This document shows positions 5,090 to 61,666 of a stretch of 64,000 bases of DNA, piece after piece. A model generated the notes under the pieces. It ran no database searches and was not told the DNA's origin. It saw only the letters and a program-made list of their open reading frames with translations. Within the stretch, counting starts at the first letter, position 1. Every line of letters starts with the position of its first letter. Location: the IMG/VR virus record IMGVR_UViG_3300029267_003506; one strand, 5' to 3'. The position numbers were made by a program, and so were the translations under genes. Origin of the DNA: a virus. Taxonomy: Duplodnaviria > Heunggongvirae > Uroviricota > Caudoviricetes.

Positions 5090-5120
5090 TGTAAGGCTCC
5101 TCTATATTGTCATCGAGTTA

Positions 5121-5723: not shown

Positions 5724-5744
5724 ATTCCCACTCCTTTCAGAGTG

Positions 5745-17473: not shown

Positions 17474-18275
17474 TTTCTTCCTCCTTTGCAACGTACTCCT
17501 CGCAAACAAATGACAAGGCTTCAGCGTTTGTCTTGAACCCGTATTTTTCCTTTGCCACGGTAATAGCCGATAAAACATGTTCGCGCTGTTGTACCGTTAC
17601 AGCATAGGAAATAGGGAAAAGTTGTTCGCTAGGCATTTCCGATTCATCCACCGGAGGCGTTGGCGGCTCTACCACATCCCCGTCCACAACGTCACCAACA
17701 CCGTCTGCCTCATCGCTGGTGTGTATTGCCTGGCTACCTGGTTCCCCTTTGAACTTATTGGAAACCGGGGCATCTTCGCCAGCCGCTTCTTCATTTTTCG
17801 CGGGTTTCCTTGGCGGTTCGGCTTCGCTATCCAGAAAACTCAAGTCAGCGTCGATATCCTCGAATCCTAAACTCTCAAAGCGTACCGAATCTTCTGTTTT
17901 GATACTAGCCAGGAGGTCATCCAATTCTTCCTGGATGAAGTCTCCTTGTGCCTCACGGTTGTTTAAGGCGACATTCAGCGCCTTTTCGGCAACAGAATTC
18001 GGCTCCAACGAAACCCAGGTAACATCTGCGCCACACACCCAGTCTTGCCCGAGAGCCTTCAGCGCCTTTAGTCGTTGGTGACCTCCCACAACACGGTTGC
18101 CCATGCGATTTACCGTCACCGTCATAGCCAACCGAAACCCCTCGTCGCGTTCTTCTTCTGTAAATGCGTTGCTTCCTTCTCTCACTGATGCTTTAAGGTT
18201 CTCAAGGTTCCGCGAACTGATTTTTCGCGGGTTGTATGGCAGTTCATTAAGACTGTCAATTTGTACTCTGTCCAC
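17466..18275 (-). CDS. ParB-like nuclease domain protein
   Basis: LPYNPRKISSRNLENLKASVREGSN...VVGGHQRLKALKALG resembles the ParB/Srx N-terminal fold. Confidence 0.55.
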   Translation of the reverse strand: MDRVQIDSLNELPYNPRKISSRNLENLKASVREGSNAFTEEERDEGFRLAMTVTVNRMGNRVVGGHQRLKALKALGQDWVCGADVTWVSLEPNSVAEKALNVALNNREAQGDFIQEELDDLLASIKTEDSVRFESLGFEDIDADLSFLDSEAEPPRKPAKNEEAAGEDAPVSNKFKGEPGSQAIHTSDEADGVGDVVDGDVVEPPTPPVDESEMPSEQLFPISYAVTVQQREHVLSAITVAKEKYGFKTNAEALSFVCEEYVAKEEEND

Positions 18276-18301
18276 CCCCGCCTCCTTGCTGTCGTGCTCT
18301 C

Positions 18302-19642: not shown

Positions 19643-20123
19643 ATTTGACCGCAGTCGTCGTTTTTACCTTCGTTGCCTTCTCCAAGATAGCCTTCGCCTC
19701 CGGAGAGTTAACCGCCACTACATCCTGCGCCCTCAGACTCCAGTTTACCTCGTATCCGTAGTTGTTTTCACCGAGAAAGTCCAAAAGGGACTCCATCTTC
19801 CCAGGTGCTACGCGAACAACAACTTGGCTACCGACTGCAGTGCTGAATTTTTCCCCTTCAAAGACGTTCCTGAACCGTTCCTCATCCTCTGCCCCGTCGA
19901 AACCAAGACTCACGGACTTCCGACACGTAACCACCGCGCTGTCGTTCTCTCCGGCTACGCGCACGCTGCTCTCGCCTTCCTCAAAAGAAACAGCGCCTGT
20001 CAATTCCTCCTTAATTTCTTTCAAGCGCGCTTGGTGCTTTTTGCTTTCTGCGTCGAGTTGCGCCCCCTCATCGACCAACCTCGTCACATCATCATCCACA
20101 CTCGCTGTTCTAATTTTCGCCAT
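19632..20123 (-). CDS. hypothetical protein
   Basis: Start MAKIRTAS chosen to limit overlap with the upstream gene. The ORF track extends to 20168. Confidence 0.4.
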   Translation of the reverse strand: MAKIRTASVDDDVTRLVDEGAQLDAESKKHQARLKEIKEELTGAVSFEEGESSVRVAGENDSAVVTCRKSVSLGFDGAEDEERFRNVFEGEKFSTAVGSQVVVRVAPGKMESLLDFLGENNYGYEVNWSLRAQDVVAVNSPEAKAILEKATKVKTTTAVKFEW

Positions 20124-20859
20124 CTCTCTTTGTTGCCTCCCCTTCTTCGTCGATAAATTCGCTGACATCTATCATTCGCACGACCGAGGTACCGTCTTTA
20201 TCCGTCACGTGCCAAGCAGAATCCGCCACTTCATGCATTGCCACGTGGTGCGACAGCATGATAACCTGCAAAGCCAAGCGATGTGAAACGTCGCACATAA
20301 ACTCGGCAACCCTGTCTACGCGCGTCAAATCCATGTGTTTGTAGCACTCATCCAGAATGCAGACGGGATCAGTTTGCCGTGACGCGAGAAGAACCAAAAG
20401 ACGGAGAGGCACGCTGATGGTGTCTGAAACACCGCCGCCAAAACCATCCATCTGCCTCCGGACAGGACCTTGGGGTGTTTCCTTCACCAATTCAATTTCC
20501 ATAAAACTCCGGTTGTTTTTCACGTCGTAAACCAACTCGATGCGATAGGTGTCCCCGTAGATAAACGACAAGGCTTCCGTGACAACATTTTCAATTTGCG
20601 CCTTCATCGCCCCTCGACGACTGTTAGCCACGTTCTCTAGGAACTGTAGGGCTTCTTGTCCCATTTCGAGTTGAGACACGCGCGATTTCACCTTTTCCAC
20701 GTGCTGTGCAATCTGGCGGTCGAGCGTTTGGTTCTCAATCTGAAGCCGGGTCAAAGTCGTCCGTCGCCCTTTGAGAATCCCTTCTACCATTGAAACATCC
20801 ACAAGTTCCGCCTTCCATTTTTCAACCAGCGCACCACTATCAGCGCGTCGCCTTGTCAT
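20110..20859 (-). CDS. coiled-coil plus ABC/SMC-like ATPase C-terminal-half protein (no Walker A); start uncertain
   Basis: Signature-like FGGGVSDT, Walker B CILDE, H-loop IMLSHH. The annotated ATG lies 2 nt downstream of a TATAAT box. Confidence 0.45.
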   Translation of the reverse strand: MTRRRADSGALVEKWKAELVDVSMVEGILKGRRTTLTRLQIENQTLDRQIAQHVEKVKSRVSQLEMGQEALQFLENVANSRRGAMKAQIENVVTEALSFIYGDTYRIELVYDVKNNRSFMEIELVKETPQGPVRRQMDGFGGGVSDTISVPLRLLVLLASRQTDPVCILDECYKHMDLTRVDRVAEFMCDVSHRLALQVIMLSHHVAMHEVADSAWHVTDKDGTSVVRMIDVSEFIDEEGEATKRDGEN

Positions 20860-22403: not shown

Positions 22404-23639
22404 TCAAACGTAATCCATGTCGGAATCGTCCGCCGCACTCTTCAGCACGTCAATACCGAAGATTTGCATTGCCTGCTCATTGTACACAGCCAGTTCGCCG
22501 CCGGGAACATTCGGATCTGGACTGTCATCCACAAGTTTCCCAAAGACCGCGTCATGCAACGCCCAAGCGATATCTTCGTCGTATTCCCGGTAGAGGTCGC
22601 AAACGCTCACGATGAGGCGCGTTGAGAATGGGGTTGTCACTTCTCCCTGTCGTTTGAGATTCCGTATGGCGTCACGGAACCGGAGCAACTTGCGGACCAT
22701 GCTGTCATTGCCGATCTTTTCTCGCAAGATCGATTCTTCAGCGCGGCGGTTATACCCGTAGTGAAAAATCGCGTCAATACGGTCAAGGGTACTGTCGTCT
22801 AGTGCGTCTCCCTGCGCCACGTAGCCTGCATCCCGCGTACTGAGGATCCCCCTCCCAATCGTATTGCCCAGCAACACAATCCGGAATCCACTGTGGCTCG
22901 TTACTACCCGAGCGCCATCAGCGTCAACCCGGATCTGCCGCCGTGGACTGAAGTTGTCAAGCAGGTTATTCAACCCTATGGCAATCCAACTCGGTATCAT
23001 CGGAAATTCGTCAACAACCAGGAGGGCTGGATTCCCAACTTCGTTGCCTTTTTCGTCAAGACCGCACTTCATGGCGCGGATGACAGGTCCTTCGAGAAAT
23101 TTGATGATACTCTGTTCCGTCTTCTCGTCTACCTCAATGGTTTTCTCGCCAATAAACGAAGCGGTGTCCATGTCCCGCTTGCAGTTGATGAGTTCTAGTT
23201 CCATGTTCAATTCTTCAGCCATCAGCCGCATATGTGTGGTCTTCCCACACCCGGTCGGACCCACGCCGCACACCACCAAGGACGAAGGGCTCTGAATGAG
23301 TTTTTTCATGCGCTGATGCAGGCGTGGCTTGATGTAGGTGTGCTGAATCTTCTTTTTGGACGTCCTTTTCTTGCCTCGTTCTTTTTGTCGCCCCTCTGAG
23401 TGAGTTCCCGAGATGGCAAAGAGCCGGACAGTTTTCGTCGTGTCGTAAATGTCCACAACGATGCTGTCTGCCCCTTTGACAAGACAGCGACGAACTTTGG
23501 ATTTCCGGAGTACGTCAAAGTGGTCGGCAACAACAGGATCGTCCCACCCCACCTCAACAGTTCCGTGTTCAGCAACGAGTTTTTTGACTGCCTCGACTAC
23601 TCGTTGCTCCTCATCTGTAAGACTGGCTTTTGTGGGCAT
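22404..23639 (-). CDS. AAA+ ATPase, MoxR/CbbQ-like (AAA_5-type)
   Basis: Walker A VVCGVGPTGCGKTT. Walker B LLVVDEFPM. Sensor-1-like RIVLLGNT. Confidence 0.75.
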   Translation of the reverse strand: MPTKASLTDEEQRVVEAVKKLVAEHGTVEVGWDDPVVADHFDVLRKSKVRRCLVKGADSIVVDIYDTTKTVRLFAISGTHSEGRQKERGKKRTSKKKIQHTYIKPRLHQRMKKLIQSPSSLVVCGVGPTGCGKTTHMRLMAEELNMELELINCKRDMDTASFIGEKTIEVDEKTEQSIIKFLEGPVIRAMKCGLDEKGNEVGNPALLVVDEFPMIPSWIAIGLNNLLDNFSPRRQIRVDADGARVVTSHSGFRIVLLGNTIGRGILSTRDAGYVAQGDALDDSTLDRIDAIFHYGYNRRAEESILREKIGNDSMVRKLLRFRDAIRNLKRQGEVTTPFSTRLIVSVCDLYREYDEDIAWALHDAVFGKLVDDSPDPNVPGGELAVYNEQAMQIFGIDVLKSAADDSDMDYV

Positions 23640-25320: not shown

Positions 25321-27183
25321 CTACGCCCTGAAACGACCTCTTGTGATGATGTCCGCAAACCGACGGAAGAAATCTTGTCCCATTTGTCGCTCATCTTTCA
25401 GGTAGACAAAATAATCCCTCCCGTAAAACTTCCTCGGTTCTATTGTGCGCACACCGAACCCATATACCTCGACTCCCGCTCTTCGACTGCGCTCACAAAC
25501 GTACTTGAGAAACTGACCCATTTCCTGCTCGTTGTTATGTCCTGCTTCGGGACAACCATCGCTCAAACTGAAAATGATCCTACGGCGCTCTCGGCACGTA
25601 GACAAGCGCGCGACAGCCATCTCAATTGCCTCACAGTCCACATTGTGCTTGAAGGCTGAAATGCGAACTATGCGTGTTTTGACGGCTTCCCATCTCTCGG
25701 TGAAGGTCTTATAAATACGCAACCTGAGAGGGTTTGTTCGATCATAGCCCGGAATTAGTAACTTTCTGGGAATTTCGCCGCCAAAGTATTTCGTGGTACT
25801 TCCGACAATCTCAAAGCGAACCCCCAGTTTGTTCAGGGTCTCCCCCAACGCCGCAACAAGCCGCTGCATGGCGTATCGTGAAGCAGACATCGAAGCGCTT
25901 TCGTCCACAATAATGACTACCGCTGTATCCAATTTCTCACCGTCTCGAACCTGGTAAAAGACCCGTTTGTCCAATCCGGCTGCCGCATCCACAAGCCGCC
26001 GCATGTCAAGTTTTCCGCGTCGCATGTATTGTTCCTTACGAGAGCGACTAAGTGTGCGGAGAGCCTGGTCCAGTGCTCGACTGATACCCATAATGCTGTT
26101 TGCCACTTCTTCGCGGACTGCGTTGAACTGAGCCACACTGGTGCTATCGGGCACCTCGTATGCGTCGTTTTCCCTAATACTGCGATAGCGACGATCTGCC
26201 TCGGGAACTTCGTCGATTTGCGCTTCAAGTTCGCGCCGCAGGAATTCTCCCAGGTCCTCGCCTTCTGCCTCCTTCTCAAGCGCACCAGCAACCTCTTCGT
26301 CTGTTCGATCATCCTTCGTGTTTTCGACCTGTCCACTTGTTTCGTTGTCTGTACTCTCGCCTTCCCTGGGGTCCGCTGTTGCTGTCTCCTTCCCTTGTTG
26401 TCCCTCTTGTTGTCCCTCTTGTTGTCCCTCTTGTTGTCCCTCTTGTTGTCCCTCTTGTTGTCCCTCTTGTTGTCCCTTTTGTTCCCCTTGTTCCCCTTGT
26501 CCTTGCTGCTCTTTCTTTATTGCCTTAATGATGTCGTAAATCTTTCTGGCGATCACCAGGCAATCCCCTGTGGATTCTGCTCCACGCACCTCTTGGTATG
26601 TCTCATAGGCAGCGCTGATGTACTCTGCCGCGAGCCCCTCAGCGCGCCATGCCAACCGCGCCCCCTTGCACATTATCTCCATGGCGCATGCGGCTTCCCA
26701 AAGTGGAATCTCAACGGTTTCCCCACGTTGCACTTGTCCTGCAATTTTCTTGTTGTGGTAGTCCCGGCTCCAGTTGAAAACCACCCGGCAGCCTTCGTAT
26801 TTTCTTGCACCCTTCGCTTCAATTCGGTAATCATCCAGAGAATTCAAAATTGTCTTCAGAGCCTTGTTCTCACGGATTTCCTCCCACTGAGACTCCGAGA
26901 GATGGCTGTGAGCAATGTGGAGTACCTCGTGATAGTAGTAAGCCCGTGCCAACATAAGATCCTGTAGACCGTTGAGTGGCGGCATGAAAATGGTGCGGGT
27001 TTTCACATTGGCACAAGGGGGATTGCCGGGAGCCACATGCTTGATGGTTACCCTACCGTCCCGGCACATGTGTGGGATGATTACTTTGAGGGCACGCTCG
27101 ACCTCCTGAACGGCTTTGAGTTGTTTTTGCCGCTCAACATAGCGAGCATTCTTCTTGCTGTGTTTCGTCGTTGTGGCGCTCAT
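25321..27183 (-). CDS. zincin-like (HEVLH) N-domain plus vWA domain protein with (QEGQQ)n linker
   Basis: HExxH (YYHEVLHIAHSH). vWA MIDAS VIIVDESASMSAS. Low-complexity QEGQQ repeats. Confidence 0.7.
   Translation of the reverse strand: MSATTTKHSKKNARYVERQKQLKAVQEVERALKVIIPHMCRDGRVTIKHVAPGNPPCANVKTRTIFMPPLNGLQDLMLARAYYYHEVLHIAHSHLSESQWEEIRENKALKTILNSLDDYRIEAKGARKYEGCRVVFNWSRDYHNKKIAGQVQRGETVEIPLWEAACAMEIMCKGARLAWRAEGLAAEYISAAYETYQEVRGAESTGDCLVIARKIYDIIKAIKKEQQGQGEQGEQKGQQEGQQEGQQEGQQEGQQEGQQEGQQGKETATADPREGESTDNETSGQVENTKDDRTDEEVAGALEKEAEGEDLGEFLRRELEAQIDEVPEADRRYRSIRENDAYEVPDSTSVAQFNAVREEVANSIMGISRALDQALRTLSRSRKEQYMRRGKLDMRRLVDAAAGLDKRVFYQVRDGEKLDTAVVIIVDESASMSASRYAMQRLVAALGETLNKLGVRFEIVGSTTKYFGGEIPRKLLIPGYDRTNPLRLRIYKTFTERWEAVKTRIVRISAFKHNVDCEAIEMAVARLSTCRERRRIIFSLSDGCPEAGHNNEQEMGQFLKYVCERSRRAGVEVYGFGVRTIEPRKFYGRDYFVYLKDERQMGQDFFRRFADIITRGRFRA
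26390..26480. repeat. 15-bp tandem repeat (CCCTCTTGTTGTCCC x about 6) encoding (QEGQQ)n
   Basis: Perfect tandem copies inside vWA-zincin gene 25321..27183. Confidence 0.8.
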
Positions 27184-37112: not shown

Positions 37113-37700
37113 TTATGACCGCGCCCCAAATCCTTCCATTTCCAGCAACTCAACCGCTGCTAGTTCGTCTTCCGGCATCGTCTTCGACAGCGCCAGGACC
37201 CGTACCGTCACCCCTCGCGAATCGCCCACAATCCATGCCGGTTCCTTCCGAAAATCCAATTCCGGAATGTCACGCTCGATGGCAAACACTTCACGCTTTA
37301 ACCGCTGACGAAGTTCCTTCTCTGTCGCCGTCGCCCAACCAACAGAAACCAGGGAACCAGCAGGACCAATCGTCGTCTCAAATCCCAAAACAAACCCGCG
37401 CGCCGTGTAAGAGTAGAACTTCTCCGTGCGCACTGCAGCCGTTTTCTCGACCTCGGAGGCTACTTTCCGTTCTTCCAAATCCGGGAATTGGGACTGAATC
37501 TCCCTGGCTAACCACAGAGTGCCCTTTTCCTCTGCCTTTTCAAGCATCTGGTCAATCCTCCGCGCCGTCGCCGGAGAAAGCCCCCGTAGCCGGTTCCCGT
37601 CGTCGCGTAGCATCCACATGGCAAGGTTCAATGCCCACTTCTCGACACGAGCCGCTAGACAGATGACCTCATTCGCGATACGTTCTGCGATGCGCTTCAT
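37113..37700 (-). CDS. peptide-box family member (divergent box MKRIAERIANEVICLA)
   Basis: N-terminal box variant. 195 aa. Confidence 0.5.
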   Translation of the reverse strand: MKRIAERIANEVICLAARVEKWALNLAMWMLRDDGNRLRGLSPATARRIDQMLEKAEEKGTLWLAREIQSQFPDLEERKVASEVEKTAAVRTEKFYSYTARGFVLGFETTIGPAGSLVSVGWATATEKELRQRLKREVFAIERDIPELDFRKEPAWIVGDSRGVTVRVLALSKTMPEDELAAVELLEMEGFGARS

Positions 37701-38122
37701 CGGAACCCCTTTATCAGCGGAACTATACCCTTATCTGGCAGCCCTGTTTCCTTCTTGCCGAGAATCTTGTCCTTGTCGAGACCCAATCCGAAGATGTCCG
37801 AGAACTCAATCAGCCCACGCGGCCCCTCGCCGCTGTAGCCCCATGAGAACCCATCGAAATTGTGCGTCGCCCTGTGGCCGTCGCTCGGGCGCACAAAGTC
37901 CACCTCCAGGTCCCAGTTGACACCCGTCTTGTCGTACTCGTAGACCGGGTCATCTGCAATCTCATAGCCAGCGCCCTTGATGAGCCGGGCGTTCGCGATG
38001 CTGGCTCTGGTTGCCCCCTCGGTCTTTAGCTGTAGGGGTCTCATAATCGTGAACGGGCTTTTCACAGCCTCCAGCAGCTTGGCCACCCGTATGAGTTCAC
38101 CCGCAATGCGCCTGTCGTCCAT
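37697..38122 (-). CDS. peptide-box family member (MDDRRIAGELIRVAKLL)
   Basis: Canonical N-terminal box. RBS GGAGGAA. Confidence 0.6.
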   Translation of the reverse strand: MDDRRIAGELIRVAKLLEAVKSPFTIMRPLQLKTEGATRASIANARLIKGAGYEIADDPVYEYDKTGVNWDLEVDFVRPSDGHRATHNFDGFSWGYSGEGPRGLIEFSDIFGLGLDKDKILGKKETGLPDKGIVPLIKGFR

Positions 38123-38705: not shown

Positions 38706-39011
38706 ATGATCTGCCTACGATGTGGCTACTGTTGCAAACACTCATTCGTGGTCATCATCGACGACCCCGAACAGGGCTATGACCCCAACGACCCCGATTG
38801 CCAAGACAACATGGCGGTCGTCCTGGGAGATGGGACGCCCTGTAAACACCTGCGTGGGGAGAAACCAGGAGAATACTACTGTGCCATACATGACAAGCCC
38901 TGGTACAAACACACCCCTTGCGCCAAGCATCAGCAAATCGAACAGAAAAACTCGAACTGTCGCATGGGAGAGTATATTCTCTCCAGGGAAAATCAAGAAG
39001 GGAGGAAGTGA
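38706..39011 (+). CDS. Cys-rich hypothetical protein
   Basis: CLRCGYCCKH...CQD...CKH...C. Confidence 0.5.
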   Translation: MICLRCGYCCKHSFVVIIDDPEQGYDPNDPDCQDNMAVVLGDGTPCKHLRGEKPGEYYCAIHDKPWYKHTPCAKHQQIEQKNSNCRMGEYILSRENQEGRK

Positions 39012-39012
39012 T

Positions 39013-40038
39013 ATGTACCGCAAATTGGCTCTTTTGCTCGTGCTCTTTGGCTATTCGGTGACTCACGCTGGGGACGCCTATGTCATCACGCCAACATTCG
39101 TCCACGCAGGTCCCAACGCCACCCCTGAAAACCGCATCTGCCGACTCCACAAAGGCACCAAGGTCGCCGTCAAAGGAAACGTCGGTGACCTCTCCATCAT
39201 CAAATACAGCGGCTACGACCTCACCCTCACTGGCTACCTGCCCAAAGAATCCATCACCGACCAGGCACCCGAAGAACGCACCCCACCCGAGGAAACGACG
39301 CCTACCCATTACGTCAAGGAAGCCACCAAACTCATGAAGAGCGGCAGGCTTTCCGGGACCTTGGCTGAAATCACTGGCTATGGTCCGGGGGTCACTATTC
39401 TGGCTGCGGAGGGCGGTTTTCGGCGTGTTGCTTACTGTAGCCCTGATTTTGAAGTGCGTGGCTGGGTGGAGGAAGGTGTGCTAGTGTCTCAAAGCGAATG
39501 GGAGGCGGTGAGGACCAAACTCGCTACCGCTGCCAAGAAAGAGGCTGCTGAGGCGTCTAAGTACGGAAAGGTGACGGACCTGCCTCTCAAGAAAGAAAAA
39601 GCGCTGACTATGCCTCAATTCGTGCGTATCAATGAACGCAGTGACCAAGAACATGTCCGCGTCCACTCTATGCCAGTCCCGACTCGCGCCGACTGGGAAA
39701 AGCGAAAAGAGAGCCTGAAAACAATCAAGAACCGTCTTCTCTGGCGTCGGGTTACTGACACTTTTTTCGTCATAGGCACTTTCCATCATCCTCTAAGCAA
39801 AAACAAACCTGTCGTCATCAACGGTATCAGCCTGCGTAACTACATCGGCGTCAAGTTGGGTTGCAGTAAAGTAAAAAAGGCTAAAAAACTCGCAAAGCGA
39901 GTAGTTAGCGGCTACTCCGGTGACCAAAGATCTCTGAAACTCAAAGTGGGAGACAAGGTTAAAGCCAGTTTCATAATCTACAAAACGTCCTCCAACGGCG
40001 TCCCTTCAGCCGTTTATTTCGACGTTTGCCACAAATAA
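39013..40038 (+). CDS. secreted hypothetical protein (signal peptide)
   Basis: Start MYRKLALLLVLFGYSVTHAGDA at 39013 with RBS AAGGGAGGAAG. The ORF track's longer frame from 38722 overlaps the previous gene. Confidence 0.55.
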   Translation: MYRKLALLLVLFGYSVTHAGDAYVITPTFVHAGPNATPENRICRLHKGTKVAVKGNVGDLSIIKYSGYDLTLTGYLPKESITDQAPEERTPPEETTPTHYVKEATKLMKSGRLSGTLAEITGYGPGVTILAAEGGFRRVAYCSPDFEVRGWVEEGVLVSQSEWEAVRTKLATAAKKEAAEASKYGKVTDLPLKKEKALTMPQFVRINERSDQEHVRVHSMPVPTRADWEKRKESLKTIKNRLLWRRVTDTFFVIGTFHHPLSKNKPVVINGISLRNYIGVKLGCSKVKKAKKLAKRVVSGYSGDQRSLKLKVGDKVKASFIIYKTSSNGVPSAVYFDVCHK

Positions 40039-42456: not shown

Positions 42457-42840
42457 TCAGCCTTTCAGCGGGCCTGTCTTCTCGTAGCCCCTGTCCCGAA
42501 GAATTTCCTCTCCGCTGTTCTCGTCGGCAAACTCGACAATGCCGTTCAGGATAACATACAGACCTTCTTTCGGAATGACCAGCGCCGTCTTCGCCCAGTA
42601 AATATCCTTCGCCTCGGGACTCAATCCTTTCACCTCGGACATGGCCACCTTTTTGATGTCTTCCTCGGTGTCTATGATTCCTTTGACTGTCCGGCTGCGC
42701 CCCAATGTTGCCCTCACGTGCCCGCGAATCTGGATGTGGAATTCGCCGTCACCTTTCGACAAATAGGTCTTGGTGCCTTTGTAGGCCGTCAGGTTCTTGG
42801 CCAATTGCACCAGATCTCGTGCTACCCGTCTCTTGTTCAT
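42457..42840 (-). CDS. peptide-box family member (MNKRRVARDLVQLAKNL)
   Basis: Start at the box Met, 42840, with RBS GGAGAAAACC. The ORF track extends further upstream in frame. Confidence 0.55.
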   Translation of the reverse strand: MNKRRVARDLVQLAKNLTAYKGTKTYLSKGDGEFHIQIRGHVRATLGRSRTVKGIIDTEEDIKKVAMSEVKGLSPEAKDIYWAKTALVIPKEGLYVILNGIVEFADENSGEEILRDRGYEKTGPLKG

Positions 42841-47489: not shown

Positions 47490-47924
47490 TCAGAACGTCA
47501 TCTGACCGCGCATTCTCTTTTCGAATTGCTTCAGTTCCCTGCGTTCTGCGGAGGTCAGGTCAGGTTCTTTGTCCCAGAGTTCCTTGACCCTCTGGCGTTC
47601 TCTCTTGTTCAGGTTGCTCGGTTCGTCCGCCGCTACGATTTCCTTCGCCAACCGCAGCAACTCGGATGCTACCGCAGAGGCAGACAGGTTCCTCATCAAG
47701 CCCTTCTTGTTTTTGATGACTTGTTGCAGCCCTCGGATTACGCTCTTGGCTCCGTCCTCGCTCAGGTTCTCCACTGATTCGCCCCTCTGAATCTTCTTCA
47801 GGGCATCTTCGTACCAACGCAGGTCAGCCTCGTCCTTTTTCAATGCGGCTTCCCATTCCTTCTTCGTCGTCCTGGGCATCTGACTCCTCCATCTAACCGT
47901 CGCGCAAGTTTTCTTACGCGACAA
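47490..47924 (-). CDS. peptide-box family member (box internal: SAVASELLRLAKEIVAA)
   Basis: The box lies at about aa 84-97. An alternative start MRNLSAS at 47696 would make it N-terminal. Confidence 0.5.
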   Translation of the reverse strand: MSRKKTCATVRWRSQMPRTTKKEWEAALKKDEADLRWYEDALKKIQRGESVENLSEDGAKSVIRGLQQVIKNKKGLMRNLSASAVASELLRLAKEIVAADEPSNLNKRERQRVKELWDKEPDLTSAERRELKQFEKRMRGQMTF

Positions 47925-48094: not shown

Positions 48095-49444
48095 CTAGAA
48101 CATCATACTCGGCAATTTTATTCCCAAAGCGTGTGCTGCCTTGAAGATGTTGTTTCTGTGAAGGTCCGCTCCCCTTACATGACCGCTCACGCTCATCTTT
48201 AGTCGGTTTATGGCTTCCCTCTGATTGCGGTCAGGCGTGAAATCCTTAGCAAGTTGAACCGCAACCTTGAGTGCCAGTTCATACGTCTGCTCGTCTACTT
48301 CGCTTTTCAATTTGTGAATGTCCTTCGGGTCAATCAGGGCATAGAACAAACTTTCAGATGCTTGCCTGTTGCCTTCTTCTGAGGCGCTTTTCTTCTTCAG
48401 TGCTGCGAGGTCCTTTTTTAACGCAGTTTCGACCTTCTTGATGTCAACGTCGTCAAGATCAAGATGTCCAGCAAGAGCCTTCAGACTGGCAACGTCTTCC
48501 CTGAGCGCCTGTTGTACCCGGTTGCGCAAGAGTTTGAGGTCGAGCTTGTCACCTTCGGCTTTCGTTGCCTTGTCGTGAAGAGCCTGCATTTCCTTCACAG
48601 CGTCTTGGACCTTTTTCTTGGCTTCCTCTGGCGTCATGTTTTTGGTGGGTGCGTAGGTAATCCTCTTTGCCAGCCGCACCAATTCTCTCGCGACCTGTCT
48701 CATCTCTGCTCCTTCTCTCGGATGTTTCCAGACCCGTTCCTGCCGGCTACATCCCTTCGGTTTTCCGTGGCACGTTCTTTTCCGCTGCTTTTCCATTTCT
48801 CTCTGGATTTGCTGCTTGTGTTTCTGGTTGTATTTCCGTTGCTCTTTGATTTTTTTCTTGCGCTGGATTCCCTTTAATGGTGGTTCCTTGGTTACAGCCA
48901 TTTGCGTCGCCGAAGAAGTTACCATCTCCGTCATGACCTTCGTAATCTTTTCCTTCAGTTTTCTGAGGATGTACGCCGGCACCTTCCTTAAAGCGAGGGG
49001 TATCGTCCTGATTATGCTACCCATTTCGTCATCCATCAAGAGGGCGCGCGCATGGTGCATTCTGCTGCTTATCTCCTTTTCACCATTTTTCTCCATGACC
49101 ATTAGCAAGCCATCGTATGCCTCTCGCGCCAGCTCCCCGACGAGGGCATTTTTGAACGTTTTCATAGCCTGCTCAAAGCGCTCCTGGATACCCTTAATCT
49201 CCTTCTGTACTCGGTGTTTACCATCCGGAGTGTAGTAGTGTGTGAACCAGTACCACAGCCCAGCAGACTTTACGATGCCAAACCAGGCACGTCGTAGTGA
49301 TTTCGACGTTAAAATCACGTCAGCCCACCAATTCAGCGGCAACCGGTCAAGGCAAATCGTCATACAGCTCGCGTGAACGGGACCATATTTCCCCTTCACG
49401 CGCTTGCATGCTGCCAAAACAAAATCAGGGACCTCGTCTGTCAT
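48095..49444 (-). CDS. peptide-box family member (box internal: MRQVARELVRLAKRI at about aa 248)
   Basis: 449-aa ORF. There is an in-frame ATG at 48702 with RBS GGAG, so it could be two products or one protein with an internal box. Confidence 0.5.
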   Translation of the reverse strand: MTDEVPDFVLAACKRVKGKYGPVHASCMTICLDRLPLNWWADVILTSKSLRRAWFGIVKSAGLWYWFTHYYTPDGKHRVQKEIKGIQERFEQAMKTFKNALVGELAREAYDGLLMVMEKNGEKEISSRMHHARALLMDDEMGSIIRTIPLALRKVPAYILRKLKEKITKVMTEMVTSSATQMAVTKEPPLKGIQRKKKIKEQRKYNQKHKQQIQREMEKQRKRTCHGKPKGCSRQERVWKHPREGAEMRQVARELVRLAKRITYAPTKNMTPEEAKKKVQDAVKEMQALHDKATKAEGDKLDLKLLRNRVQQALREDVASLKALAGHLDLDDVDIKKVETALKKDLAALKKKSASEEGNRQASESLFYALIDPKDIHKLKSEVDEQTYELALKVAVQLAKDFTPDRNQREAINRLKMSVSGHVRGADLHRNNIFKAAHALGIKLPSMMF

Positions 49445-49454
49445 TTTCCAGTCC

Positions 49455-49799
49455 TTATCCGGTCACAACAATCCTGGCTATCTTCACCAGTTCAGAAGCC
49501 ACGTTAAGCGCCAAACCGGTAGGAACAGTATGGTATCTCGCCAGACTAATGGGATAGCGCCGGTCGTTCGTCAAACGCACTCTTAATGCCGTTTGTTGAT
49601 CCTTCAGCATGATCTCTTTTTGACTGCGCTTCGACACTTTCCAGCCGGCAGAAGTCAAAACATCCACAACGCCGAAAATGTCATCGCTCGACACTAAGAA
49701 TCGTTCTATCGCGCCACTCATCGCGTCGGGTTTCTCAACCACGCGAAAGCCTGCCCGCTTGAGAGTGTAGGGTATCGCAGGTTTGGCTCGTCGCTTCAT
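49455..49799 (-). CDS. peptide-box family member with the box at the C-terminus (ALNVASELVKIARIVVTG-stop)
   Basis: 114-aa ORF. Confidence 0.5.
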   Translation of the reverse strand: MKRRAKPAIPYTLKRAGFRVVEKPDAMSGAIERFLVSSDDIFGVVDVLTSAGWKVSKRSQKEIMLKDQQTALRVRLTNDRRYPISLARYHTVPTGLALNVASELVKIARIVVTG

Positions 49800-51607: not shown

Positions 51608-52024
51608 TCAAAAAGCCTGCAGACGGAATTTCTGTCTCTTAACGACTTTCTCCGCAGCAGCAACATCGTCAGCAGAAAACGAAGCGCCCCCGGAGACGTA
51701 CATGCGACCACCAACATTCAACAAGACAGCATCCGTCGGCTTCTCGGTTATCCTGTACGCCGAACCATTTCCCTTCAACCCAGCCTCGACAGCGGAGAGT
51801 TTCTTAGCCATCTGCTTGACTGCATCATTGGCGTCGGCGTTGACGTCCTTGAGAATGTCACCAGTTCTTACCTCCCTGAGTGCTTGCAGGATAATTGAGT
51901 CACCGATAACGTCATACACGAAAAACATCCCAGCCGCTTCTTTTGCCCCGCCAACGAGTTCCTTGGCTAGGCGCACCAATTTCTCGGCTACCATCTTATC
52001 TGAAACACGCGCCTTCTTACTCAT
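51608..52024 (-). CDS. peptide-box family member (MSKKARVSDKMVAEKLVRLAKELVGG)
   Basis: 138-aa ORF. Confidence 0.55.
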   Translation of the reverse strand: MSKKARVSDKMVAEKLVRLAKELVGGAKEAAGMFFVYDVIGDSIILQALREVRTGDILKDVNADANDAVKQMAKKLSAVEAGLKGNGSAYRITEKPTDAVLLNVGGRMYVSGGASFSADDVAAAEKVVKRQKFRLQAF

Positions 52025-52047: not shown

Positions 52048-52524
52048 TTAAACCGATGCCTCAACGCTCACCATCTTACTCATCACATCCTTGAATGCAT
52101 CCAAGGCAACATTGAGTTTTTTGACAGTGTTCCGGATAACAGGCTCCCGGCTCCGCTTCATCTTATCCCTGACCGCAGTAAACTCGTCCTGCAGCCTTTC
52201 TAGCCGTGAAATAGCCATTGCGATTACTGAGCCCATGTCCGCGCCAGCAACAGGACGATGAGAAGCCGTCAAGTACAAACTCTCAGCACTCCTTTTCAAC
52301 CGAGCCAGCAAAGTCACCATGCTCTTGAGGGCGTCATTTAACAAACTCGCGGCGTCAGGATTGGACTGGCGCAGGTCACGATACCACCGATTCAGGGAGT
52401 TGTATTCAGTGTCGAGTTTGTCAATCAGTTCATAGGGAAACTTCGTTTGCCACTCGTCCACTTCAGGAGAAATATCTCTGGCGATGGCAACCAGTTCCTT
52501 GGCGATCTGAATGTTGTTCATCAA
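52048..52524 (-). CDS. peptide-box family member (variant MMNNIQIAKELVAIARDI)
   Basis: 158-aa ORF. Confidence 0.5.
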   Translation of the reverse strand: MMNNIQIAKELVAIARDISPEVDEWQTKFPYELIDKLDTEYNSLNRWYRDLRQSNPDAASLLNDALKSMVTLLARLKRSAESLYLTASHRPVAGADMGSVIAMAISRLERLQDEFTAVRDKMKRSREPVIRNTVKKLNVALDAFKDVMSKMVSVEASV

Positions 52525-52583: not shown

Positions 52584-52979
52584 TCATGTAAAAACCGCAG
52601 CCAGGTGAGCAGCGATCCTACGAACCGGAAGAACACCCTCACCCTTCACCCAGTTCATCATATCGGCTTCGTCGCTCCAATCAGACCGTTTCCCGCTCAG
52701 GTGGATTTCGAACTTTTCACCCTCGAAAATGATACTCAGCGTCGCCGTCGCAGCAATGTCACTCGCCGCGTAACCACTCATGAACATATTGTATTCCCGC
52801 GCGGCACGATGGGTACGCTGAATTTGCCGGATGCCTTTGAACTCGGACTTGATCTGCTTCTCCAGGTCATCCATTAGATCGCTGTAGGCACGATGGAGAT
52901 ACGCCGTCACACGCAAATCGTCAGCCTTCGCCATCAGCGTCTTCGCCATCCTCAATAGCGCACTGGCTACCTCTTTCAT
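52584..52979 (-). CDS. peptide-box family member (MKEVASALLRMAKTLMAK)
   Basis: Start at the box Met, 52979. The ORF track extends to 53051. Confidence 0.5.
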   Translation of the reverse strand: MKEVASALLRMAKTLMAKADDLRVTAYLHRAYSDLMDDLEKQIKSEFKGIRQIQRTHRAAREYNMFMSGYAASDIAATATLSIIFEGEKFEIHLSGKRSDWSDEADMMNWVKGEGVLPVRRIAAHLAAVFT

Positions 52980-56843: not shown

Positions 56844-57283
56844 GATACCTCCCTTCCCAGATTTTGACCGCCCCTAAAACCAGTTCCCCTGACTATCCTG
56901 CATGACCTCTTTTCCGCACCTCGAACACGTTGCATGAATAGAGCAGCCATCAAAGGAACGTTTGCCGCCGCTCCCGTCATGCCATCCCATTACCAAACAA
57001 AACGACTTGTCCTTGAAGCCAACCACCCAGTCATAGACGCCCACCAACCAGAAACCGCCAAAAACCACAAACAAGAAAATCCATATGTCAAACATGCCGT
57101 TCCCCTCCACACAAATCTCGCCATTTAACACGACTTATCGAAAACCACCATCTCAAATTATACGCTCTACCTAAAAAACCACGCACGAAAAAACCCCCTT
57201 TTCCCAAGGAGGTCAAGATAACTCCAAAACTCGTCACTACAGGCGATTTATCTCTACATCAAAAGCGCCCGACTTGCAGACCG

Positions 57284-57736: not shown

Positions 57737-58165
57737 CTACCAAGAGCCTTTCACGACTTTGAACCCGTGATTGCTGGATGCCTTCTGTAGCCGAGCCATA
57801 ATCTCGTTGCTCCACTCCAGGTCTTGGTCATCGTCGATGCTCCACCGAATTCTCGTTGACGCGACAAACCACTCGCTTTTTGCCCAGAATCGCAGGGGAC
57901 GAAAATATTCGAAGCGAGCCATGTGCTGGAAGGATTTCACAGCGTCATTCAATCTCTTGAAATCGCCCTCTGAGTCGCTGGCTTTTGTCTGGAGACTGCG
58001 CACTACATCTTTCCACTCGTCCCCCTCTTCCAACTCGACAACCCAGCGGAACACAATATCAACGAGTTTGCCCTTGCTGTTGATAAAAACTTGTTTGCCC
58101 GTCCAGGAACCAGCGAGTTCCTTGGCCATCCTCACGAGATTGCGTGCTACTCGTCTGTCGTCCAT
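57737..58165 (-). CDS. peptide-box family member (MDDRRVARNLVRMAKELAGS)
   Basis: Start at the box Met, 58165, with RBS GGGGAGG. Confidence 0.55.
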   Translation of the reverse strand: MDDRRVARNLVRMAKELAGSWTGKQVFINSKGKLVDIVFRWVVELEEGDEWKDVVRSLQTKASDSEGDFKRLNDAVKSFQHMARFEYFRPLRFWAKSEWFVASTRIRWSIDDDQDLEWSNEIMARLQKASSNHGFKVVKGSW

Positions 58166-58175
58166 TGTGCCTCCC

Positions 58176-58526
58176 CTATCTCGGAAAAATCTCTCTGCGC
58201 TGTTTGTCAGCGTAATCATCCGGTGTGCCGAATTGCTTGATGAATTTGCGCTCTGCCCCTGCGACGCGGTCAAACGCCTTGGTAGTCAGTGCATTGATGT
58301 GTTTGAGGAGTTTCCCAATGAGCACCACCATCTCCTTGGCATCCCTCTCCCCTGGTCCGCCGGAATAAGAGGCAGCAATGTCGTACCTGTCCCCCACCTG
58401 CCGCAGGGCTGTCTCGGCATCGTGCAACTTGTTCCATATTGGGTCAAGCGCCTCATTCACGGTCTCTGGTCCCATTAGAGCCACGACATGATTTGCCACC
58501 CTGTCAGCCACTTGTTCCTGGTTCAT
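58176..58526 (-). CDS. hypothetical protein (MNQEQVADRVANHVVALMG...)
   Basis: 116 aa. ATGA overlap with the upstream gene. The out-of-frame 296-aa ORF-track ORF that contains it was rejected. Confidence 0.45.
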   Translation of the reverse strand: MNQEQVADRVANHVVALMGPETVNEALDPIWNKLHDAETALRQVGDRYDIAASYSGGPGERDAKEMVVLIGKLLKHINALTTKAFDRVAGAERKFIKQFGTPDDYADKQRREIFPR

Positions 58527-59188
58527 GTCACCACCTCCCTTACCTTGCCCGGCTCTATTGCCTGCCAGCCGCTCATCATCCGCAAGAACCTCTTCACCGC
58601 GAAGTCGTCCCCGCGCATTAGCAAGTCCTTCGACTTGTTCCACAGCCAAACCACAGGCCGCTTGCCCATGAGCGGATGGCTGCCGTACTTGCTGAAGGCG
58701 ATGTTGGCTTGCTGCATCGCCTGCTTCGGGTCGCCCTTTATCTTGAAGGCCCTGAGTTTGACTTTCTGTTCGTACTCCTCGCGCTGTCTCTTCTCTTCCT
58801 TGGCTTGGGCTTCGAGGTTCGTCACCTTGCGCTGGATGCCCTCGACCTGGGACTTGCTCAACTCGCGCCGGTATCCCAGGGCGACATGCAGGTGGTCGGC
58901 TCCGTAGGGCTCGACCTTCCCGGTTTCCTTGTCCTTCACCCAGTAGACGTGGACAATCTTCCGGCCACAGCTCTTGCACTTCTCGGCGTTGTCCCAGTCG
59001 CTCACCTTCGCGGAGACAAGGCCGTCCTCGCGCTTGCTGTATACCTCGTCCCATTTCCAGCGCCACTCGTATGCAACAGCCTCATTACCGTTTGGACCTT
59101 CAAATGTCTTGCTAAATGAGCGAGGTGGTCCGGATGTGAGAATCCGGGCTACCTTTAGCAACTCTTGGGCGAGGAGGCAGTCGTCCAC
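58523..59188 (-). CDS. peptide-box family member (variant MDDCLLAQELLKVARIL)
   Basis: 221-aa ORF. Confidence 0.55.
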   Translation of the reverse strand: MDDCLLAQELLKVARILTSGPPRSFSKTFEGPNGNEAVAYEWRWKWDEVYSKREDGLVSAKVSDWDNAEKCKSCGRKIVHVYWVKDKETGKVEPYGADHLHVALGYRRELSKSQVEGIQRKVTNLEAQAKEEKRQREEYEQKVKLRAFKIKGDPKQAMQQANIAFSKYGSHPLMGKRPVVWLWNKSKDLLMRGDDFAVKRFLRMMSGWQAIEPGKVREVVT

Positions 59189-59194
59189 GGTTCA

Positions 59195-59677
59195 TCAGTC
59201 CAAATCAAAATCGCTCAGAGTCGCCGTCCACTTGATCTTCGCTTTCTGATAGTCCGGGAAATTGCGCAAAAACGGCCCCACTTCACTGGCATGTTTGAAG
59301 TAAAGCGGCTCGCCAAAGTCACCATCAACCGTTGTGATTTGCACGATGTAGTTGTATCCCTTCGCCTGCATCTTCTTGGCGACAGCCTTCTCCTTGTTGG
59401 AAAGAGCCGGAGCACCTGCAACCAGCGCCTTCGCCAGTCGCACAAGTTCCGTCGCCAACTCCTCTTTCGCCATCGGACACTCATCCGTACCACCCATCGG
59501 TCCTGTGCCATCCTGGGGACCTCTGCGAAGGTAACGTCTCCCTCGTGCCATCGGAGCATCATCTGTCATCGGGCACTCATCCGTACCACCGCAAGGACCA
59601 CTGCCATCAGGAATACCAGGTCCCATGATGCTGCCCGCAAGCCGCACAAGTTTCTTCGCCAATTCTTTCCTGTCCAT
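59195..59677 (-). CDS. peptide-box family member with two boxes and an internal duplication
   Basis: MDRKELAKKLVRLAGS...GSGPCGGTDECPMTDD // ...GTGPMGGTDECPMAKEELATELVRLAKALVAG. Confidence 0.55.
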   Translation of the reverse strand: MDRKELAKKLVRLAGSIMGPGIPDGSGPCGGTDECPMTDDAPMARGRRYLRRGPQDGTGPMGGTDECPMAKEELATELVRLAKALVAGAPALSNKEKAVAKKMQAKGYNYIVQITTVDGDFGEPLYFKHASEVGPFLRNFPDYQKAKIKWTATLSDFDLD

Positions 59678-59769: not shown

Positions 59770-60201
59770 TCAGTCCAGCCAATTCGTGAACTTCCCTACG
59801 TTGGGGTTCTTTTCCAAGTACTCAACGACGGCTCCCGCGCCTTTTGCACCGCCGAATTTGACCACATACGGCACCGTCAACAACACAGAACTCGGTTCAC
59901 TCGCCTTTGAACCCATGCGCACGTCACCATCCGGTCTCATTTCCGCAGGCGACTTTGAAGCCACTTTCTCGACCCGTTCCCCAAAACGCTTCATTATGGT
60001 CGCAATGCCCTTGGCGTCTTCGCGGATGAAACTCACCTCCTGGCGAAAATACACACTGCCAGTCACCTCACCGCCATCAAGTGTGACCCAGAGACCACGA
60101 TAGGCAGCCTTCCTCGCTCGGGGTGTTCCGGAAACGTCAACTTTTGCCGTCAGTTCCTTTGCCAGTCGCACCAGTTCAGCAGCCACTCGTCTCTCATCCA
60201 T
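59770..60201 (-). CDS. peptide-box family member (MDERRVAAELVRLAKELTAK)
   Basis: 143-aa ORF with the canonical box. Confidence 0.6.
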   Translation of the reverse strand: MDERRVAAELVRLAKELTAKVDVSGTPRARKAAYRGLWVTLDGGEVTGSVYFRQEVSFIREDAKGIATIMKRFGERVEKVASKSPAEMRPDGDVRMGSKASEPSSVLLTVPYVVKFGGAKGAGAVVEYLEKNPNVGKFTNWLD

Positions 60202-60216
60202 CCCTCAACTCCTGCT

Positions 60217-60561
60217 TCAGAATGCCATGTAAATACGCTCGGCGGTTTCTTCATCAAACTCGCGCCTTACCTGTTCGATGCCCTTTTTGTAGAATTTGTC
60301 GTAAACCACCTTGCGAAGTCCAGCCGGCATGCTCCCAAAATAGTCTCGCAGGGCAATCACCGCACGCATCGCACTGGCAGCCTCCCTGTCCCGCAGCACC
60401 TTCGCGAATAGGTACAACAATGACTCCGAAAACCTATTCGAATCCGTCATGCGCTGAATAGTCTTGATGTGTTTTTCAACATCCACCGCCGTGCGTTTAC
60501 GGTCACTGCTTACCCCTTTCGCCAGCCGCACCAGTTCAGCAGCCACTCGTTTTTTGTCCAT
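60217..60561 (-). CDS. peptide-box family member (MDKKRVAAELVRLAKGV)
   Basis: Start at the box Met, 60561, with RBS AGAGGGA. Box DNA is almost identical to that of gene 59770..60201. Confidence 0.55.
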   Translation of the reverse strand: MDKKRVAAELVRLAKGVSSDRKRTAVDVEKHIKTIQRMTDSNRFSESLLYLFAKVLRDREAASAMRAVIALRDYFGSMPAGLRKVVYDKFYKKGIEQVRREFDEETAERIYMAF

Positions 60562-60607
60562 CTCAATCCCTCTCTTCGCGCAAACCTTGTTACCCGCTAC
60601 TTCCTCT

Positions 60608-60964
60608 TCAGACATCAACGACCACACCGATAAATGCCTCGCGCCCGTCGAGACCTGCCTGCACCTTCCCAGTACCACCAAATCTCTCGATTACGCTCCC
60701 GTCGTCGTCAAGCCCATCCATCTCAAACGTGAAACCGTGTTCCGAGCCCGACAACATCGGATTCTGCCAAATCTTCGTAAACTTCAATGAACCTTTGACA
60801 TAGCGAACATTTGGCGTGAAAGCATTGGGCACTTCCTTTTCCAGCATGCGTTCCACTCTGCGCTGGTACTTCACTGGCTTCCCAAAAGTCCCGAGACTGT
60901 AAACACCAGAAACGAGTCTTTTAGCCACCCGGACAAGTTCTCGCGCTACCTGTTTCTTGTTCAT
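60608..60964 (-). CDS. peptide-box family member (MNKKQVARELVRVAKRLVSG)
   Basis: Start at 60964 with RBS AAGGGGA. Confidence 0.55.
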   Translation of the reverse strand: MNKKQVARELVRVAKRLVSGVYSLGTFGKPVKYQRRVERMLEKEVPNAFTPNVRYVKGSLKFTKIWQNPMLSGSEHGFTFEMDGLDDDGSVIERFGGTGKVQAGLDGREAFIGVVVDV

Positions 60965-61023
60965 AATTCCCCTTTCGCTCGCCTGCTTTTCAGGAGGGTG
61001 AACGGCAACCAATCAACGTCTCC

Positions 61024-61371
61024 TCAGTCAATCTTGTCTTCTACTTCTCCGGCACCGTCATCCAACATCTCTTGTTCATCCGGCACCAACTCATTGAGAA
61101 GCCTTTGAAATTCACCAACATGCACCCGCTCCTCGTCGGCGATATCCTGAACGACACTCCGGACAAGTTCATTATCCGTCGCATCAGCAATGAATTCGTA
61201 GAGGTGAACCGCTTCCTCCTCCGCCGCGAGACCCTGACGCAGTAGCCTGGTCAACTCACGCTCGTTCACCTTGCGATCAGGGTCCAGGCAAACGCTCGGA
61301 TTGACAAATTGACCACCACTCAGAACCTTGGCAATGCGTACCAACTCTGCTGCAACGCGCTTGTTCGTCAT
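61024..61371 (-). CDS. peptide-box family member with ferritin-like ExxH pair
   Basis: MTNKRVAAELVRIAKVLSGG... then EEEAVHLYEF...DEERVHVGEF (two E-x-x-H motifs). Start at 61371 with RBS AGGAAGAG. Confidence 0.5.
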   Translation of the reverse strand: MTNKRVAAELVRIAKVLSGGQFVNPSVCLDPDRKVNERELTRLLRQGLAAEEEAVHLYEFIADATDNELVRSVVQDIADEERVHVGEFQRLLNELVPDEQEMLDDGAGEVEDKID

Positions 61372-61381
61372 CGGTCTCTTC

Positions 61382-61666
61382 CTATCTGAGTTTCTTGAGT
61401 TCTCCGAGGTAATTGGAACTACTGAGGGCATCAATCGCCTTCTTGATGACCGCCCGGATTGCCTTGATTGCCTTGTCGCGCTCTGACGGCTCTCCTCCCG
61501 GTTTCGCCACAAACGAATCTGAAAGCCTGTCATCGAGTTTCGCCAAAACCGTGAAAGCCTTGCCTATCTCCTTCCGCACATCGCCATCCAAGCCGGCTAT
61601 GCGCTCTGCAGCAATCATTTCCTTGGCAATCCGCACCAGTTCTCCTGCAATCCGTCTCTCGTCCAT
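61382..61666 (-). CDS. peptide-box family member (MDERRIAGELVRIAKEMIAA)
   Basis: 94-aa ORF. Confidence 0.55.
   Translation of the reverse strand: MDERRIAGELVRIAKEMIAAERIAGLDGDVRKEIGKAFTVLAKLDDRLSDSFVAKPGGEPSERDKAIKAIRAVIKKAIDALSSSNYLGELKKLR

Follow-up and report, generated by a model that had tools for sequence, protein, structure and literature searches.

A conserved peptide box on unrelated small proteins of a tailed phage, a candidate cargo tag for the phage head

Enzymes of the Pdu, Eut and beta-carboxysome microcompartments carry encapsulation peptides, amphipathic helices of about 18 residues that stand at either terminus and are joined to the enzyme by a poorly conserved linker. The leader of the internal proteins of phage T4 is shorter, with about 10 residues of the type MKTYQEFIAE, and is removed by the prohead protease, which cleaves after Glu at an L/I-x-E site. 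It is the only part that these proteins have in common; it targets the prohead scaffolding core and thereby directs them into the capsid, from which they are injected with the DNA (PMC3012670; PMC12373910). Encapsulin cargo is tethered to the inside of an HK97-fold shell through a short peptide on a flexible linker (PMC11202242), and T4-type phages also have promoter-early stem-loops, which are mobile regulatory cassettes that mediate modular shuffling (PMC2839356). Here, we describe a short peptide, called the box below, that is repeated on small genes in a 64,000-nucleotide stretch of a tailed phage (Caudoviricetes; IMG/VR record IMGVR_UViG_3300029267_003506), which as a whole is referred to as the window. 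Judged from its sequences, the box is established as a portable binding tag that acts at the peptide level. That it is an amphipathic-helix cargo tag for the phage head is our preferred interpretation, to which we assign a probability of about 0.5.

Peptide-level conservation and distribution of the box

The consensus of the box, M-D-x-[KQ]-[RK]-[VIL]-A-x-E-L-[VL]-[RK]-[LIV]-A-K-x-L-[TVS]-[AGS], spans about 19 residues. Columns A7, L10 and A14 of the box profile are invariant or nearly so, and columns 19-20 are mainly A, G or S. A loose regular expression for the box core matched 14 times in the six-frame translation of the window, all 14 on the minus strand, compared to a mean of 0.017 matches in nucleotide and triplet shuffles. 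Scanning the window with a profile built from 63 boxes added a strong copy in 42457..42840 (127 amino acids [aa], MNKRRVARDLVQLAKNLTA, 25.7 bits), which was detected by the profile only, and divergent copies in 52584..52979 (131 aa, MKEVASALLRMAKTLMA, 13.6 bits) and 52048..52521 (157 aa, MNNIQIAKELVAIARDIS, 12.4 bits). The total for the window is 17 boxes in 16 genes spanning 37.7-61.7 kb, and all box genes given here with window coordinates are on the minus strand.

The earlier note on this DNA, made from the letters alone, had claimed protein-level selection from the box codons of 61024..61371 and 59770..60201. The quoted codons are exactly those in the sequence, and the two genes use different synonymous codons at 9 of the 10 same-residue positions of the box (codons 5-15). 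For the codon analysis, 61 distinct box DNAs were taken from the window and about 18 related metagenome contigs with GC contents of 36-59%. The degenerate DNA pattern by which relatives were found fixes the amino acids and leaves synonymous positions free, and about two thirds of the analysed boxes are not themselves matches to the pattern. In this set, five codons, drawn from both the TTR and the CTN family, encode the invariant Leu10; the invariant Ala14 occurs with all four codons and Arg12 with AGR as well as CGN. Pairwise pS was 0.69-0.78, which equals saturation, against a pN of 0.27-0.30, and the 5' regions of four box genes folded no better than their shuffles (z of -0.5 to +0.7). The saturation of synonymous sites, the low pN and the lack of predicted RNA structure therefore support selection on the box peptide, not on DNA or RNA, and the codon-level alignment agrees with what had been claimed. 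Two observations favor a signal in the nucleic acid: the synonymous codon identity among the window boxes was 287 when 223 ± 14 was expected, and some positions have one preferred codon across contigs (e.g., V6 GTA, V11 GTG and K15 AAG). A reading of the box as a downstream box or translation signal was ruled out by the codon evidence.

Fourteen of the 17 boxes of the window lie at or near the N terminus, mostly 5 residues past the Met, which in nearly all cases has a Shine-Dalgarno sequence upstream. The start is uncertain for two of these 14, and the box is possibly internal there. One is the 202-aa gene 48095..48703 (MRQVARELVRLAKRITY, found by the regular expression), which has its own Shine-Dalgarno sequence and is in frame with an upstream open reading frame (ORF) reaching to 49444, the alternative being a box internal to a 449-aa protein; the other is the ORF 47490..47696 (MRNLSASAVASELLRLAKEIVA), the box of which is perhaps internal to the ORF 47490..47924. 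The remaining boxes are the second, internal one of 59195..59677, one that starts from residue 12 of the 138-aa product of 51608..52024 (MSKKARVSDKMVAEKLVRLAKELVGG, found by both regular expression and profile), and a C-terminal one, ..NVASELVKIARIVVTG followed by the stop codon, in the 114-aa gene 49455..49799 (16.5 bits). In the region of the earlier note, the box genes stand in a tandem array of small genes on the minus strand, each with a preceding Shine-Dalgarno sequence, and the main array covers 57.7-61.7 kb. Its first gene is 61382..61666 (94 aa, N-terminal box MDERRIAGELVRIAKEMIA, 33.8 bits); 58523..59188 (221 aa) has a GTG start and the divergent box (V)DDCLLAQELLKVARILTS (18.6 bits), and the last box gene of the array is 57737..58165 (142 aa, MDDRRVARNLVRMAKELAG). 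A terminator-like hairpin with a T run at 57192..57214 on the minus strand, 3' of the tandem array and found by consensus scan only, is a possible end of the transcription unit. A scan for sigma-70 promoters gave no more matches than shuffles did.

The DNA pattern (42 bits, <1 chance match expected) matched on 21 metagenome contigs, most of which hold several tandem small genes that all start with the box (11 in L036, 10 in L021 and 6 in L023). These contigs are relatives of the window phage; L017, for instance, has four genes in common with the window. A profile of the window's own boxes found 172 proteins at an E value of ≤0.001 among 1.84 billion representatives. Among the best 150 of these 172, the box is N-terminal in 126, internal only in 22 and present more than once in 47, and the median length is 124 aa. 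All ten family members that were looked up are metagenomic, nine of them proteins without a name and one labelled "hypothetical protein," and a broader pattern found two viral contigs with real box genes in IMG/VR. Matches to the narrow DNA and peptide patterns in IMG/VR were internal chance matches only and were discarded.

Elsewhere, the searches were negative. There was no match in 50,697 phage records to either the consensus box (tblastn) or the array (blastn), and the first 50 kb of Tunturiibacter phage Tunturi_5, whose terminase is 28% identical to that of the window, contains no box. Scanning 185,579 species-representative genomes gave nine pattern matches and no true box. Eight of the nine were copies of one multi-copy ORF in metagenome-assembled genomes (MAGs) of Planctomycetaceae, with an internal ..PRKLAIELVRLAKRI.. 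scoring about 10-18 bits, and were attributed to chance; a match in Haliea fails the box profile and was rejected on the same ground. The Planctomycetaceae ORF, in which ..WEGYQIMPPRKLAIELVRLAKRIDLTRYPKKKRGPKK.. matches the box DNA pattern at eight loci (L043-L046 and L048-L051), is probably an insertion-sequence transposase, and such chance matches call for caution in surveys based on patterns. A word-index protein search with the box alignment returned 112 candidates, none of which was scored, the motif being too short for the method.

No Pfam or PHROG model covers the box in the 57 + 148 box proteins checked, the PDB holds no natural match to the box profile, and the motif strings had no match in the literature searched. 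The bodies of 57 complete box proteins have no mutual similarity except for one linker motif common to two of them. By these comparisons, the box marks an undescribed family in which one tag is found on bodies that are almost all unrelated to each other. A leader common to otherwise unrelated small phage proteins is a feature of the T4-type capsid targeting sequence (CTS), and the box shares it.

The box is predicted to be an amphipathic alpha-helix followed by a small-residue or disordered hinge. Its helical hydrophobic moment is 0.55-0.86, with V6, A7, L10, V11, L13, A14 and L17 on the hydrophobic face and R5, E9, R12, K15 and E16 on the charged face. In the AlphaFold model of the 61024..61371 product (pLDDT 90), the box is a helix over residues 2-14, followed by a 22-residue non-regular segment and then a confident domain. 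The model of a double-box protein is of low confidence overall; in it, the boxes are helices 3-18 and 71-87 with a low-confidence linker between them. The occurrence of the box at the N terminus, internally or at the C terminus is a position independence that fits a docking helix. A-x-E motifs lie within the box at 7-9 and 14-16. A leader of the type found in ribosomally synthesized and post-translationally modified peptides (RiPPs) was also considered and rejected, the bodies being 50-300 aa long and at least one of them a folded enzyme domain; comparison of the neighboring ORFs with families found no RiPP-type modifying enzyme near the box genes.

The ferritin passenger and recombination at the box

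The body of 61024..61371 is an encapsulated ferritin (EncFtn), and the 115-aa product is made up of the box MTNKRVAAELVRIAKVLSG, a linker and the EncFtn domain. In the PDB, the body matched Pyrococcus furiosus EncFtn (5n5e, E value of 1e-13), 2e0z (an EncFtn-encapsulin fusion) and EncC and EncB of Myxococcus xanthus; it also matched Pfam Rubrerythrin at 32 bits, over the cut-off, and the top Foldseek matches of its model were all encapsulated ferritins. Identity to the 119 closest homologues is 55-68% and confined to the body. An encapsulin targeting peptide (..PTVGDLKE or ..LTVGSLKK), in agreement with the published consensus (PMC11202242), ends 53 of the 119, and 55 are short forms; the N-terminal box is found on the window protein only. 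The encapsulin peptide, L/F-x-V/I-G-S/T-L, is in turn absent from the window protein, which has the C terminus ..DDGAGEVEDKID. On contig L036, a ferritin domain without an N-terminal box runs straight into a box and a 55-aa tail. The ferritin domain of P0112 (contig L042) is followed by the box-like tail RRVAHEIVKIARMIVEG, which at 4.5 bits against the box profile is suggestive of a box without being confirmed as one.

Since 53 of the 119 homologues have the encapsulin peptide and the window protein has the box, the tag has been exchanged: as far as the sequences can tell, this family, otherwise cargo of HK97-fold shells, has swapped its shell-targeting peptide for the box in these phages. None of the window ORFs scanned matched an encapsulin or capsid family; many of these ORFs have no family at all, and the neighbors of the ferritin gene are box genes. 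The few named close homologues of the ferritin (P0011 and P0079) come from MAGs of Candidatus Brocadiia and Planctomycetota, a weak hint as to the donor or host lineage.

The earlier note had also seen about 30 nearly identical nucleotides in two adjacent genes and taken them as a sign of recent duplication or gene conversion. The identity is confirmed. The box gene 60217..60561 (114 aa, MDKKRVAAELVRLAKGVSS) and its neighbor 59770..60201 (143 aa, MDERRVAAELVRLAKELTA) have a run of 24 exact nucleotides in common (60527..60550 and 60167..60190), which reads A CGA GTG GCT GCT GAA CTG GTG CG and extends to 30 nucleotides with one mismatch (60521..60550 and 60161..60190), while all other pairs of window boxes have at most 13 exact nucleotides in common. 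With independent synonymous codons at genome codon usage, a run of ≥24 nucleotides anywhere among the 91 pairs has a P value of 0.0006, and with codon usage specific to each box position the value is 0.003. The 60 nucleotides upstream of the two genes are identical at 22 of 60 positions, which is the chance level, and the bodies have no similarity to each other.

The same pattern is found in relatives. On L018, 53 exact nucleotides are common to an adjacent gene pair; this run begins at the ribosome-binding site, ends with the last box codon and is followed by abrupt divergence. On L032 there is a 43-nucleotide exact run, likewise ending with the box, between the box of a 22-aa ORF and that of the next gene, and L031 has a 24-nucleotide run. 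The sequences thus support the interpretation of the shared runs as footprints of recent duplication or conversion limited to the 5' module, and for the adjacent pair in the window the proposed event is upheld by the P values of 0.0006-0.003 and by the recurrence in L018 and L032. The 22-aa ORF of L032 (631..699) consists of a box and a stop codon only (MNNEKVARELVRIAKKLMVGAT) and looks like a recombination remnant.

A further proposal was that the box is a built-in substrate for the shuffling of bodies behind a constant tag. Shuffling is borne out by the comparison with relatives. The body of 60608..60964 (118 aa, MNKKQVARELVRVAKRLVS) is 68% identical to P0137, which adds a 75-aa leader with two PDGTGP..ECP motifs between box 1 and box 2, and this double-box leader is present on five different bodies. 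The ferritin body is found with an N-terminal box, with a box after it, or with the encapsulin peptide instead. The body of 37697..38122 (141 aa, MDDRRIAGELIRVAKLLEA) recurs in L017 (10004..10720) behind another box and a further domain (about 100 aa), together with an internal box that has decayed. A standing homologous substrate, on the other hand, was not found: most box pairs have no more than 13 exact nucleotides in common, and the box DNA is therefore not such a substrate and the events are episodic. Multi-box proteins are, from their sequences, most simply explained as fusions of tandem box genes. In the window, the double-box gene is 59195..59677 (160 aa), with box 1 (..LVRLAG), GPGIPDGSGPCGGTDECP, RRGPQDGTGPMGGTDECP, box 2 (59411..59476) and the body.

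Three recurrent linkers accompany the box. A second motif after box 1, GPG[IV]PDG[ST]GPxxxx[PT]EC[PQ], repeats after an Arg-rich stretch (RRRRYLRRGPQDGTGPRGGTPECP), after which box 2 follows; its carriers are 59195..59677 in the window, L031 1115..1480, L052 6767..7654, P0125, P0137 and P0161. It had no match in Pfam or in the literature searched, and its Cys residues, which come in pairs, may point to metal binding or a disulfide bond. In larger proteins, found as matches to the family profile (P0127, P0163, P0138, P0121, P0128, P0134 and P0156), the box runs directly into [IM][ED]FP[TS][QK][DE]A[YL]DKY[LM]K[ED]HP[DA]AD[KR]S[KN]H, and each protein has two to four copies of this unit; this FP..DKY..HP motif is absent from the literature searched. 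The linker SGCEKLPEGPMRDNCEKKKEEGK recurs after the box in P0130, P0133, P0135 and P0149 and probably explains two weak CP12-domain matches.

A candidate receptor in the phage head and its alternatives

We infer a receptor in the head and packaging of the passengers from four strands: the tag swap of the ferritin, the close analogy to the internal proteins of T4, the prohead protease of this phage, and the box genes beside portal and terminase genes in relatives. The window has a portal gene (3074..5089) and a large terminase gene (5745..7586), and the DNA that flanks the window on the same contig encodes a head maturation protease (phrog_18299, E value of 7.8e-15) about 6.5 kb downstream of the portal. 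On L018, whose portal is 62% identical to that of the window, two box genes are directly upstream of the portal, and on L030 a box gene is directly upstream of a homologue of the gene that precedes the terminase. In the mechanism that we propose, the box helix would dock its passenger onto one common receptor in the assembling head, with the scaffolding core and the inner surface of the HK97-type shell as alternative candidate sites, and diverse small proteins would thereby be packaged and delivered with the DNA. New passengers would gain the tag by occasional recombination or duplication that joins a ribosome-binding site and box to a new body, and multi-box proteins would arise by fusion of neighboring box genes.

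Several points weigh against a receptor in the head. The main array at 57.7-61.7 kb sits 50 kb from the portal and terminase genes, and no capsid protein, scaffold or receptor was identified by Pfam, PHROG and PDB searches among the large neighbors (503, 539, 786 and 1018 aa, and others). In sequence, the box resembles neither the T4 leader nor the peptides of encapsulin cargo, and its conservation around the whole helix, including E9, R12 and K15, would fit any specific protein partner. A ferroxidase in a DNA-filled head would have no obvious role. Box residues specific to one genome, which would suggest coevolution with a receptor from that genome, gave only a weak signal (columns 8 and 12; P values of 0.01-0.02).

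Among the alternatives, docking onto a common partner outside the head (a phage hub, a chaperone or ATPase, a replication compartment or one host protein) survives best, although we regard it as rather unlikely. All evidence for a protein-level binding tag counts equally for such a partner, the all-round conservation of the helix points to a specific groove or helix bundle, the array is distant from the head genes, and the window has MoxR-like AAA+ and CobT-like/vWA genes. It would, however, leave unexplained why EncFtn, an obligate shell cargo, traded its shell-targeting peptide for the box and why box genes stand beside portal and terminase genes in relatives, and no candidate hub co-occurs across the contigs.

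Self-association, in which box helices would pack as a coiled coil or helical bundle and join different bodies in mixed oligomers, is improbable. The hydrophobic positions 6, 10, 13 and 17 follow a 4-3-4 spacing that resembles a coiled-coil heptad, Ala7 and Ala14 are seven apart, de novo designed helical repeats (RELARELVRLA) are the top PDB matches of the box profile, and two or more boxes occur in 47 of the best 150 family members. Against this, the helix, at about 13-17 residues, is short by the standard of stable coiled coils, tandem-gene fusion also accounts for the multi-box proteins, EncFtn already makes its own decamer (PMC11202242), and the low-confidence double-box model cannot tell whether the boxes pack together. 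Still more improbable is another sorting or stability signal, such as a membrane-binding amphipathic helix, a secretion signal or a degron. The box is amphipathic and usually N-terminal, but membrane helices and degrons seldom require invariant Ala and Leu and conserved charges at fixed positions, the box is also internal and C-terminal, and there is no hydrophobic core of the signal-peptide type. The weakest alternative, a nucleic-acid signal at the 5' end of the genes (translation enhancer, RNA structure or recombination site) with the peptide as a by-product, has next to no probability in view of near-saturated synonymous sites with up to five codons per invariant residue across 36-59% GC, RNA folding that does not exceed that of shuffles, and boxes that also lie inside ORFs and at ORF ends.

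If the box does load proteins into the head, a sequence rule would list the proteins that an uncultivated phage lineage carries into the cell, and these proteins, now almost all labelled hypothetical, would be prime candidates for counter-defense and host takeover. The ferritin would then be an encapsulin cargo re-addressed by a tag swap, a case that is undescribed as far as we have searched and that bears on the relation between encapsulins and capsids, and a short, position-independent helical tag would offer a handle for loading foreign proteins into capsids. A bolder and much more tentative extension is that phages of this lineage employ their HK97-type capsid as a general compartment for cargo, served by a dedicated and portable loading peptide, a living link between phage head and encapsulin in which a captured EncFtn was re-addressed by a peptide swap. 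In that case, a packaged proteome, perhaps of dozens of delivered proteins, would be readable from sequence. Even with a receptor outside the head, the box would be a clean natural case of one tag conserved across hundreds of unrelated bodies, and the footprints of recombination are visible.

Neighboring genes and comparison with described systems

The closest terminases of GenBank phages are those of a 485-kb uncultured phage (33%) and of Tunturiibacter phage Tunturi_5 (28%), and the same genome as that of the window is present in metagenome assemblies of ENA and JGI on contigs of up to 117-132 kb. Just downstream of the portal, 717..3077 encodes a Lys/Glu/Pro-rich protein of 786 aa with PEAKPE-type repeats and no family match; the near-identical strain L038 has a 760-aa version, and the number of repeats thus varies. 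Two MoxR/CobS-like AAA+ ATPases, a CobT-like vWA protein and a DUF2201 protein (vWA and metallopeptidase), encoded by 18302..19642, 22404..23639, 25321..27183 and 12994..14307, make up a chaperone-like set. The sole large plus-strand ORF in the otherwise minus-strand window, 38722..40038 (438 aa), has no family match. On the phage contig L042, very large ORFs (1023..7574 and 18222..20357) have intein domains (Intein_splicing and LAGLIDADG), one of the intein ORFs is a terminase homologue (MJ0330_N), and a gene for an IS605 OrfB/Cas12f-like TnpB is also found there.

Compared to the CTS of the T4 proteins Ip1, Ip2 and Ip3, the box is likewise a short N-terminal leader on otherwise unrelated small proteins of variable loci, and the window phage likewise has a head maturation protease. 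The box consensus, MDxxRVAxELVRLAKxL, does not, however, resemble the T4 leader. The box is also longer, at about 19 residues, occurs internally, C-terminally and in multiple copies, and is carried by at least 16 genes in 64 kb compared to about 3 per genome, and packaging and cleavage are putative here.

The link to Family 1 encapsulins is that one box protein is an EncFtn, 55-68% identical to homologues of which about half carry the encapsulin peptide. In contrast to that peptide, which is extended, C-terminal and of the form L/F-x-V/I-G-S/T-L, the box is a predicted helix of about 19 residues that mostly stands at the N terminus. None of the scanned window ORFs was recognized as an encapsulin shell gene, and the presumed shell would be the phage capsid. 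Microcompartment peptides resemble the box in being amphipathic helices that direct unrelated enzymes to one protein shell, but they are weakly conserved and belong to cellular operons with BMC-fold shell genes, whereas the box is strongly conserved and belongs to a tailed phage. The promoter-early stem-loops are, like the box, short repeats at gene starts that are linked to insertion, deletion and replacement of small neighbors. They are non-coding and conserved as nucleotides, whereas the box is coding and conserved as a peptide, with only occasional DNA identity.

T4, encapsulins and microcompartments already exemplify the use of a short tag on diverse cargo. What is new here is the sequence family of the tag, its strong conservation and position independence, the larger number of genes per genome that carry it, and its presence on an encapsulin cargo.

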